A stretch of 5,262 bases of DNA from a virus (Duplodnaviria > Heunggongvirae > Uroviricota > Caudoviricetes), in the IMG/VR virus record IMGVR_UViG_2526164664_000018; one strand, written 5' to 3'. The translations under genes were made by a program, and so were the position numbers. This document shows, piece by piece, positions 1,891-2,585 of this stretch (within the stretch, counting starts at the first letter, position 1; each line of letters begins with the position of its first letter). Below the pieces are notes generated by a model, which saw nothing but the letters and a program-made list of their open reading frames with translations, was not told the DNA's origin and searched no databases.

Positions 1891-2585
1891 ATGAAAGAGA
1901 TGATTTCTGTCGATCATGAAATATCCATGAGTAGTCTGGATTTTCTGAATAACATTATTAATCCAGCCCGGGCAGAAGCCGGAGAAGTCCCTCATGAACC
2001 GCGTAAGTTTCTTGCAAAAATTGAGGATGAGCTAGAGCTTGATGGAACCGGAAAAAATTCCGGTTAAACAATAACCAGACAAGAACGGCATACTATGATC
2101 TGGATTTTGACCAGATGATGCTCGTTGGCATGAGGGAGTCAAAGGCCGTTCGTCGTTCTGTGCTGGCAAGACTCAAAGCGATGCATGGTATTCAGATCCC
2201 CCGGACTTTACCTGAGGCGTTGCGATTTGCGGCAAAACTGGCTGAACAGAAAGCAGTGCTGGAAAATCAACTGGCAATAGCAGCGCCGAAGGCTGAATTT
2301 GTTGATAACTATGTTGAAGCATCTGGTCTGATGGGATTCCGGGAAGTTGCTAAGTTACTCGGTATCAAAGAAACCGATTTCCGGCTGTTTTTGTTGGAGA
2401 ACGGAATAATGTATCGCCTCGCTGGAAAAATGACGCCTTACTCGCATCACCTGGATGCGGGGCGGTTTAGCGTGAAAACGGGCGAGGCGGGCAATGGTCA
2501 TGCTTTTACGCAGGTTAAATTCACCCCAAAAGGTGTTCAGTGGATTGCTGGTCTGCTTGCTGCATGGAGAGCTACCGCAGCATGA
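1891..2585 (+). CDS. Phage antirepressor (Rha-like N-terminal part + KilAC C-terminal domain), interrupted by an apparent 1-nt frameshift (pseudogene or sequencing error)
   Basis: As written there are two ORFs: 1891..2067 (58 aa, MKEMISVDHEISMSSLDFLNNIINPARAEAGEVPHEPRKFLAKIEDELELDGTGKNSG) and 2115..2585 (156 aa). The second carries a KilAC-type domain (…AKLAEQKAVLENQLAIAAPKAEFVDNYVEASGLMGFREVAKLLGI…GRFSVKTGEAGNGHAFTQVKFTPKGVQWIAG). The frame of the second ORF is open back to 2043 with no start codon (WNRKKFRLNNNQTRTAYYDLDFDQMMLVGMRESKA), and that stretch resembles the Y-x-L-x-x-D-x-x-M-L-V-x-G core of the Rha gene at 3341. Restoring one A in the A6 run 2052-2057 joins both parts into one protein of about 230 aa. 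SD AAAGGA at 1877-1882. Confidence 0.7.

Follow-up and report, generated by a model that had tools for sequence, protein, structure and literature searches.

The window analysed here, that is, the whole 5,262-base stretch of DNA deposited as a Caudoviricetes record in IMG/VR (IMGVR_UViG_2526164664_000018), is the late region of a lambdoid Stx1-type prophage, and it carries among its lysis genes a gene for a KilAC-domain protein (ant hereafter) that is split into two open reading frames (ORFs). Judging from its homologues, ant is normally a single intact gene for a 231-amino-acid (aa) regulator annotated 'antirepressor', and its interruption in the window is, on balance, probably a real and unprogrammed frameshift in a decaying prophage, not a switch. 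The break falls in a run of adenines at the centre of a palindrome, and comparison of related genes indicates that this palindrome is a selected nucleotide-level element of ant-type genes and also of genes of the Rha type. The frameshift is relevant to annotation only, and the conserved dyad is the part worth following.

The two ant ORFs, at 1891-2067 (58 aa) and 2115-2585 (156 aa) on the plus strand, lie in different frames and meet exactly at a run of six adenines (A6, 2052-2057), as the initial annotation had proposed. ORF1 encodes residues 1-55 of the 231-aa protein followed by frameshifted NSG and a stop codon, and the remainder of the gene (2058-2585, residues 57-231, with KilAC at residues 125-224) continues in the -1 frame relative to ORF1. 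The KilAC identity suggested earlier is borne out by a Pfam match to PF03374 ANT over positions 2115-2582 (E=1e-28, 100 bits against a cut-off of 25.3), a match also found in 21 of 21 aligned homologues. If one A is added, the two ORFs become one of 231 aa, whose product is identical to phage and prophage proteins. When one phage and three prophage copies were aligned, the sole difference at this site was a run of seven adenines (A7, coding for Lys55-Lys56), with which they read as 231 aa, and the expectation that intact homologues carry A7 was thereby confirmed. A search among 5.8 billion proteins returned 1363 relatives of ant, and those with 50-90% identity, from Plesiomonas, Salmonella, Cronobacter, Pantoea, Providencia, Yersinia and Citrobacter, each consisted of one ORF of 230-255 aa whose alignment spans the junction. 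Since the gene is uninterrupted, with A7 and about 231 aa, in close and distant homologues alike, the window has a 1-bp deletion; that is, its ant is not an uninterrupted ORF like those of other KilAC proteins and belongs to the family as a pseudogene. The frameshift is already recognised as such by annotation pipelines, the identical A6 allele being labelled 'frameshifted' in RefSeq. No experimental study of the function of this protein was found in the literature, and the name 'antirepressor' derives from the Pfam domain. Pfam gives ANT only for the intact protein, with no P22_AR_N or P22_AR_C domain, and P22_AR_N is present in neighbouring genes of other phages.

The split could also be read as two separate genes, one for a small N-terminal protein and one for an independent KilAC protein. 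Indeed, the 58-aa ORF1 product matches a 58-position family of PHROGs (phrog_20910) end to end, and 156-aa KilAC proteins have been deposited as 'antirepressor Ant'. The deposited 58-, 61- and 156-aa proteins and the PHROG are, however, broken E. coli alleles with A6 or A8 (96-100% identity), the diverged homologues are all fused, and ORF2 starts 47 nt past the ORF1 stop codon with no clear Shine-Dalgarno sequence, so that the probability of two genuine genes is close to negligible. It is likewise highly improbable that the A6 allele still makes the full-length protein by programmed -1 ribosomal frameshifting or transcriptional slippage. In the frame of ORF1, the sequence A_AAA_AAT (2052-2058) forms a heptamer of the type X_XXY_YYZ, from which a -1 slip enters the KilAC frame, and the zero-frame stop codon follows three codons later, but the two-frame layout is not conserved, the homologues being in frame, and other classes of ant genes lack the heptamer. 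Moreover, no stimulatory structure is found 5-9 nt downstream, the hairpins either overlapping the slippery site or beginning 1 nt after it with a C·A mismatch.

A survey of the length of the adenine tract bears on the remaining explanations. Among the 227 complete E. coli genomes holding the junction, A7 was present in 208 (exact 81-mer), A6 in 1 (exact 80-mer) and A8 with the same flanks in 0; the other 18 differ in the flanks, and at least 92% of the complete-genome copies are exactly A7. On IMG/VR contigs, in which A6 and A7 only were counted, the A7 21-mer occurred in 49 and the A6 junction in 1. A large assembly collection held the A6 product (ending in …GKNSG and a stop codon) on 23 contigs, plus 5 and 5 on variants with single-nucleotide polymorphisms (SNPs), the A8 product (…GKKIPVKQ and a stop codon) on 58 contigs, plus 1, the downstream 156-aa ORF on 108 contigs, and the intact protein on at least 1000. 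The A6 state is found in at least four prophage backgrounds, whose identity to the window in the neighbourhood of the gene is 99.9%, about 99%, 97% and 92.6%; for A8 the number of backgrounds is three or more, although recombination among co-resident prophages could inflate the number of 'independent' A6 and A8 events; one genome has A6 in two prophages. The A-tract is therefore a recurrent site of insertion and deletion in both directions, with the in-frame A7 strongly dominant: A6 and A8 recur in several backgrounds, some of them in assemblies with other homopolymer indels, which makes the tract a hotspot of either slippage or miscalling. It is also a useful marker site, at which assemblies often disagree. 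The initial annotation had considered a hairpin with a homopolymer loop a plausible slippage hotspot. The hotspot itself stands, but a role of the hairpin is unsupported, because the A6 and A7 hairpins are predicted to be equally stable (-10.7 and -10.6 kcal/mol, respectively) and nothing points to the hairpin rather than the run. As the longest homopolymer in the gene, the A7 run would be a hotspot without the hairpin anyway.

Of the three options offered at the outset for the break, namely a reversible ON/OFF switch, ordinary decay and a sequencing error, the last two both stand and the first is not supported. That slippage in the A-tract reversibly toggles the regulator, as in a phase-variable contingency locus, would be in keeping with the existence of both -1 (A6) and +1 (A8) alleles in several backgrounds, and with the fact that A7 is never interrupted by a synonymous AAG in 27 distinct class-1 genes. 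Nevertheless, the tract has just 7 bases, the invariance of AAA AAA concerns two codons only, and the length does not vary among close relatives at the appreciable frequency that a contingency locus would require (A6 in 1 genome and A7 in 208; 49 to 1 in IMG/VR). Furthermore, other ant classes have no homopolymer at this site (GAAAATTTC and GAAACTTTC; GAA AAT TTC and GAA ACT TTC) and yet keep the palindrome, which means that the conserved feature is the dyad and not the slippery run. We therefore regard a switch as very unlikely.

In the decay that we favour, one A would have been lost from the A7 tract by strand slippage at the longest homopolymer of the gene. Translation would then stop after 58 residues, and the KilAC part appears to have no convincing ribosome-binding site of its own; for these two reasons ant would be a pseudogene. 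The alternative is an artefact of sequencing or assembly, in which the organism would have A7, the gene would be unbroken, and A6 would reflect undercalling of the homopolymer. An artefact is possible, although we consider it doubtful, and several observations point towards it and thus weigh against decay. The A6 state rests on assembled sequence, in which a homopolymer miscall can occur; A6 is found in just one of the complete genomes, all 227 of them from RefSeq, and that genome also has a frameshift in the adjacent lysozyme gene 270 nt upstream; further 1-nt deletions are present in ant (gene nt 309 and 563) in five chromosome-size assemblies whose tract is A6 or A8, and G6/7 has a frameshift in the neighbouring lysozyme gene as well; three A6 drafts (AIGK, AIFG and AIFE) stand in adjacent accession series and are apparently from one project; and the window has a 117-bp deletion, described below, that is unique in all collections searched. 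To these must be added that the lack of translation of the KilAC part is deduced from the sequence only. On the other side, an IMG/VR contig (L007) and an NCBI draft (L177) that are 99.9% identical to the window have A6 too, while differing from it by 2 SNPs and the 117-bp deletion, so that A6 is found in records that are not identical. The exact 58-aa truncated product is encoded on 23-24 public contigs from NCBI, JGI, ENA and Logan, and many A8 records are otherwise clean genes in small-contig draft assemblies. In other genomes ant is broken by indels in a T5 run, by IS600 or IS3 insertions, or by truncation at nt 500, and full-length ant is absent from 34 of 229 complete E. coli genomes. 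A separate observation concerns two O111:H8 genomes (L002 and L003), which have other ant frameshifts at the T5 run corresponding to 2386-2390, one with T4 and one with T3 and a substitution.

The prophage would be decaying in a second place as well, where the start of Rz is gone. The window lacks 117 bp that are present in every related record (5291-5407 of L007), between the imperfect 8-bp direct repeats CCATAACC and CCATTACC. Alignment to relatives places the deletion junction at 2768-2775 (a strandless feature), and this junction was absent from the viral and genome contig collections and from 5426 complete E. coli genomes. Nor did the complete E. coli genomes, IMG/VR or the GTDB representatives contain any record identical to the window. 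The deletion takes the last 12 codons of a small membrane ORF on the plus strand (2680-2913; 43 aa in relatives, where it is annotated as a hypothetical protein), which now runs out of frame into Rz, and also 21 codons at the beginning of Rz, so that its start codon and N-terminal membrane anchor are gone. By alignment to relatives, the Rz remnant (2769-3164, plus strand) retains residues 22-152 only. The lambdoid S-R-Rz/Rz1 cassette is thus incomplete. Its other members, all on the plus strand, are intact: the class II holin S (864-1079, 71 aa; 100% identical to the holin of L001 and L006, the identical gene of L177 having PF04971), the lysozyme R (1084-1617, 177 aa with a hydrophobic N-terminus; PF00959 and annotated as lysozyme in relatives), and the Rz1 lipoprotein embedded in Rz (2917-3102, 61 aa; PF06085 on the equivalent ORF of L190 and L191). 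If the deletion is real, the prophage would have lost its i-spanin as well as ant, which is consistent with a decaying element, and it should be treated as probably lysis-impaired and decaying. For annotation, the two ant ORFs are to be merged as one pseudogene and the Rz remnant is to be flagged; ant itself is a dispensable cargo gene of the prophage.

The A7 tract that would have broken in the window is the centre of the dyad. The palindrome reported earlier around the A6 run is indeed a perfect inverted repeat with 8-bp arms, but its true position is 2046-2065, one base to the right of 2045-2064. As located by an inverted repeat search, it reads AACCGGAA-AAAA-TTCCGGTT (strandless), with arms at 2046-2053 and 2058-2065, and of the six adenines two belong to the left arm while the other four make up the loop; with A7, as in intact genes, the arrangement is 8-5-8. 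Within the window alone the palindrome is unremarkable, a perfect inverted repeat of at least 8 bp being found in 39% of dinucleotide shuffles. Its significance comes from the comparison with relatives, which makes it highly non-random and for which the junction was extracted from 79 related loci. Every class of ant genes has an inverted repeat at this codon position, directly upstream of the codon for the invariant Phe57, with arms that differ between classes: AACCGGAA-AAAAA-TTCCGGTT (peptide TGKKFRL), AACTACGAAA-A-TTTCGTAGTT (peptide NYENFVV), ACTACGAAA-C-TTTCGTAGT (peptide DYETFVV), the imperfect GGTCGCGGAAAA-C-TTTTACGTGACC, GGGGGTGAAA-AAATA-TTTCACCCCC, and GTCCAAATTTGGAC. When 52 distinct genes were compared, 41 showed a perfect inverted repeat of 7 bp or more there, and every other 15-nt bin had such a repeat in 2 genes or fewer. 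No synonymous variation is seen across precisely the 7 palindrome codons of class 1 (n=27) and the 8 palindrome codons of class 2 (n=10). No longer invariant stretch exists in the gene, the directly flanking codons vary freely, and only 10% (class 1) and 7% (class 2) of comparable codons elsewhere are invariant. When codons were resampled synonymously, an equally good palindrome arose with P of 0.003-0.007 in each of four classes. Moreover, the palindrome starts at codon phase 2 in class 1 and at phase 0 in class 2, that is, it is not tied to the reading frame. The corresponding hairpins are predicted to be stable in all classes (ΔG -9 to -20, z -2.2 to -4.8), and no trailing U-run follows the dyad.

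We considered whether the palindrome might be a portable sequence, because the class-2 palindrome, the 21-mer AACTACGAAAATTTCGTAGTT, also occurs in at least five non-coding contexts. These contexts turned out to be ant remnants or mosaic junctions: some of the non-coding copies are still preceded by degenerate codons resembling those of ant, the others belong to rearranged ant genes, and when such copies were fetched by their flank the palindrome was mostly degenerate. Purely mutational maintenance, by template switching, is disfavoured in that the remnants decay, and the decay of the remnants implies that the constraint is tied to intact genes. A candidate for a second operator copy in the same phage, the only near-match in MT225100 (2 mismatches, at 21397), was rejected as an ordinary terminator; a near-match of this kind is expected in 12% of shuffles, and the dyad is present in one copy per contig in IMG/VR.

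Some loci offer further observations on the palindrome. In L145 (about 1330-1680) a rearranged ant-like gene has a mosaic junction exactly at the class-2 palindrome, NYEIFVV being followed by unrelated sequence and then by the linker and KilAC, and several other remnants lose homology at the palindrome edge. At L277, L281 and other loci of the same setting ('context A'), an intergenic slot by the terminase genes holds alternative hairpins in different phages, either the class-2 ant 21-mer, or CAAAGCCCGAAAAAGGGCTTTG, or the Rha-type CAAAGCTCA-AAAA-TGAGCTTTG, and the conserved flank of this slot contains CCTCAA-A-TTGAGG. On the minus strand of the window, a promoter-like sequence (TTGACT-16-CATCAT, 2142-2115) is followed about 30 nt on by a terminator-like hairpin, TCTGGTTATTGTTTAACCGGA (2079-2052), and then by the T-run complementary to the A-run, an arrangement that could yield an antisense RNA of about 55 nt. 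This hairpin overlaps the right arm of the dyad, and the motif was not seen in the other dyad classes.

An element of the same kind is found in the Rha-family regulator gene of the window (3341-3892, plus strand; Phage_pRha and ORF11CD3 by Pfam). This second dyad, AGCGCAA-TT-TTGCGCT (3513-3528, strandless), lies about 58 codons into the gene, on the codons for E-R-N-F-A-L. The Rha N-domain was compared in 62 distinct IMG/VR sequences: 35 of them carry a perfect inverted repeat of at least 7 bp at residues 60-64, against 1 with such a repeat elsewhere, and the arms include CAAAGCTCAA/TTGAGCTTTG, GGCTCAA/TTGAGCC, CCTCAA/TTGAGG and GCTGAA/TTCAGC. A Rha relative with 69% identity has AGCGTAA-TT-TTACGCT, in which a synonymous change in one arm (CGC to CGT) is matched by an amino acid change in the other (GCG to ACG, Ala to Thr). 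Over 17 dyad types, 85% of the arm positions pair, as against 38±6% with permuted partners, and 0 of 20000 permutations reach the observed value; this count leaves out the innermost 3 bp, which the N/K-F codons supply free. Among the arm mismatches, 6 are G·T, 10 are A·C and 14 are of other kinds, that is, there is no wobble bias. Homology between the N-domains of ant and Rha was considered but is not supported: hhalign gave a probability of 2% (E=0.024) over 23 columns just after the dyad, and no Pfam Rha match was obtained in the 100 N-terminal residues of ant at E up to 5. The resemblance between the two N-domains appears to be one of layout only.

An origin of the lambda-O type was rejected as an explanation of the Rha dyad, the iteron-like TCGCACATG repeats of MT225100 being different from it. 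That phage does have an Ash + Rha gene in the lambda-O position beside cI/cro (L087, MT225100.1, 34242-35387); the repeats lie at 34642, 34744 (inverted) and 34822 and may be an origin inside this gene, which has its own Rha dyad, GCTGAA-TT-TTCAGC.

Taken from these comparisons, the dyad seems to sit on an (N/K/H)-Phe codon pair some 57-61 codons from the start of KilAC-Ant and Rha regulator genes. Its complementary arms entail that the flanking residues change in codon-complementary pairs (R/A, L/E, L/Q, Y/V and N/V). We tentatively propose, at slightly less than even confidence, that such dyads may form an undescribed class of cis-element, 16-25 bp long, with an A/T-rich centre and a fixed codon position, and acting on the expression of the gene in which they lie; no description of an intragenic dyad in ant or rha was found in the literature. 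Most likely, the element would be either a DNA dyad or an mRNA stem-loop acting on the expression of its own gene. One tentative possibility is that a dimeric protein binds the dyad as DNA, which would make it an operator or roadblock inside the gene; this would agree with the absence of a bias of G·U over A·C (6 and 10, with 14 others) and with the symmetry, which reaches the centre in several classes. An mRNA stem-loop affecting the stability or translation of potentially toxic regulators is a slightly more hesitant proposal: it would explain that the arms are free to change while remaining complementary, and that the constraint is present only in expressed genes, but the mismatch spectrum argues against it. 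Under either reading the frozen synonymous sites would follow from a dual constraint of pairing and protein, in which a silent change in either arm can be matched only by an amino acid replacement encoded in the opposite arm. It weighs against a regulatory dyad that no binding protein, processing site or second genomic copy of it was found, and that modelling of the N-domain gave no match to a DNA-binding fold. The dyad is nonetheless a clear case of nucleotide-level selection overriding amino-acid choice. Moreover, few unexplained cargo genes of temperate phages are as common as those for Rha and KilAC 'antirepressors'. Stx phages, in which induction controls toxin release, carry them too, and the dyad provides a concrete handle on the regulation of these genes.

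The surroundings of ant agree well with what had been described at first. The gene lies inside the lysis cassette, between R and the Rz remnant, and is preceded by a gap of 273 nt (1618-1890; given earlier as 270 bp). In this gap a hairpin with a 7-bp stem (1727-1745) has a weak T-tail and fails a terminator scan, so that 'weak terminator' was a fair description, and no sigma-70-like promoter was found on the plus strand of the gap. A similar arrangement, suggested by the initial annotation for some Stx-converting and other lambdoid prophages, is present in 229 of 5426 complete E. coli genomes and in 7 phage records, nearly all of them Stx1 phages. The order of genes is S-R-ant-Rz in close E. 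coli relatives and R-Rz-ant in relatives with 50-85% protein identity. Of the R-ant gap, only the final stretch of some 60 nt accompanies ant from one context to another; the roughly 200 nt before it do not. This leader of about 60 nt (about 1831-1890) contains a small inverted repeat, CCTGTGCGCAGG (CTGTG·G·ACAG), and the Shine-Dalgarno sequence AAAAGGAA (AAAAGG), and it follows a pattern, …CTC·GGGC·G·TTTTCTGTGCGA·CAGGCTCA…CTAAAAGGTAA…ATG, that stands before both ant and Rha-type genes on either side of Rz: in the window it precedes ant and, at about 3283-3340, the Rha gene, and it is found at 2925-3003 of L025, L029, L044, L047, L053 and L055. No Rfam match was obtained in or near the ant gene, the leader included. 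From these arrangements, ant would be cargo resembling a moron, carried by Stx-type lambdoid prophages in their late operon, and ant and Rha-type genes seem to behave as alternative cargoes behind a common leader, in a slot after the lysis genes. Such alternation, with a variable position and a conserved leader of about 60 nt common to the Rha gene, supports the idea that ant is a separately acquired unit.

The records closest to the window are Stx1a-converting phages and prophages of E. coli O103, O111, O26-type and O157 (99.5-99.9% identity). Its genes are, in order, the holin, the lysozyme, the gap, the split ant, the small membrane ORF, Rz/Rz1 and the Rha regulator, followed by a TonB_C-like lipoprotein gene, a YlcI/YnfO (DUF3950) gene on the minus strand and the start of an HNH endonuclease gene. 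Three further features of this region may be mentioned. At 3903-3933, 11 nt past the Rha stop codon, there is a perfect tandem repeat of 2.8 copies of the 11-mer CGCCGTATCGT. At 4201-4217, directly upstream of the TonB_C-like lipoprotein gene, a palindrome with 8-bp arms, AGAATAAG-A-CTTATTCT, overlaps the -10 element of a promoter-like site (4178-4205) and could be an operator. Finally, the minus strand at 159-236 gives a weak Rfam match to the enterohaemorrhagic E. coli small RNA Esr41, which at 29.6 bits (E=0.012) is well under the gathering score of 102 and covers a terminator-like hairpin after the upstream gene.

Among known systems, homopolymer contingency loci resemble ant in having a coding homopolymer near the 5′ end that toggles the frame, with -1 and +1 alleles both on record; ant differs from them in that its tract has 7 bases, its variants are rare and the tract is not conserved in the family. 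With the Ant protein of phage P22, which is encoded in immI with arc, mnt and sar, the ant gene of the window has in common the name and a general role as a phage regulator, whereas its location is among lysis genes of the late operon, outside any immI region, and PF03374 is the only domain found in it. P22 Ant has been cited when annotating the 'Ant' genes of Stx phages, and 'putative antirepressor' genes with pfam03374 are listed as a recognised component of these phages (PMC8136144). The nearest counterpart is the KilAC 'phage antirepressor protein' of Stx1-type prophages (WP_000661712.1; QIW91735.1 of phage Lys8385Vzw; 'Ant' of Stx1 phage phi-O153, AY838795), with 99.6-99.9% DNA identity to the window over the whole gene and with the same S-R-ant-Rz order and flanks. 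Unlike these, the copy in the window has A6 instead of A7 and is read as 58 and 156 aa.

As for the dyad, the iterons of the lambda origin lie inside gene O, and lacO2 and galOI lie inside lacZ and galE, respectively. Like the ant dyad, these are A/T-centred dyads of about 20 bp in coding sequence, which they constrain at the level of codons. The putative site in ant differs from them in being present in a single copy per gene and in having wholly different arms between classes. Perfect inverted repeats in coding sequence, with both arms coding, are also known from animal mitochondria, where palindromes in the mitochondrial genes of Nematomorpha are reported to reach up to 284 bp (PMC6649704). 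Compared with these palindromes, the phage element is short, at 16-25 bp, and would be set apart by its one fixed codon position in regulator genes.

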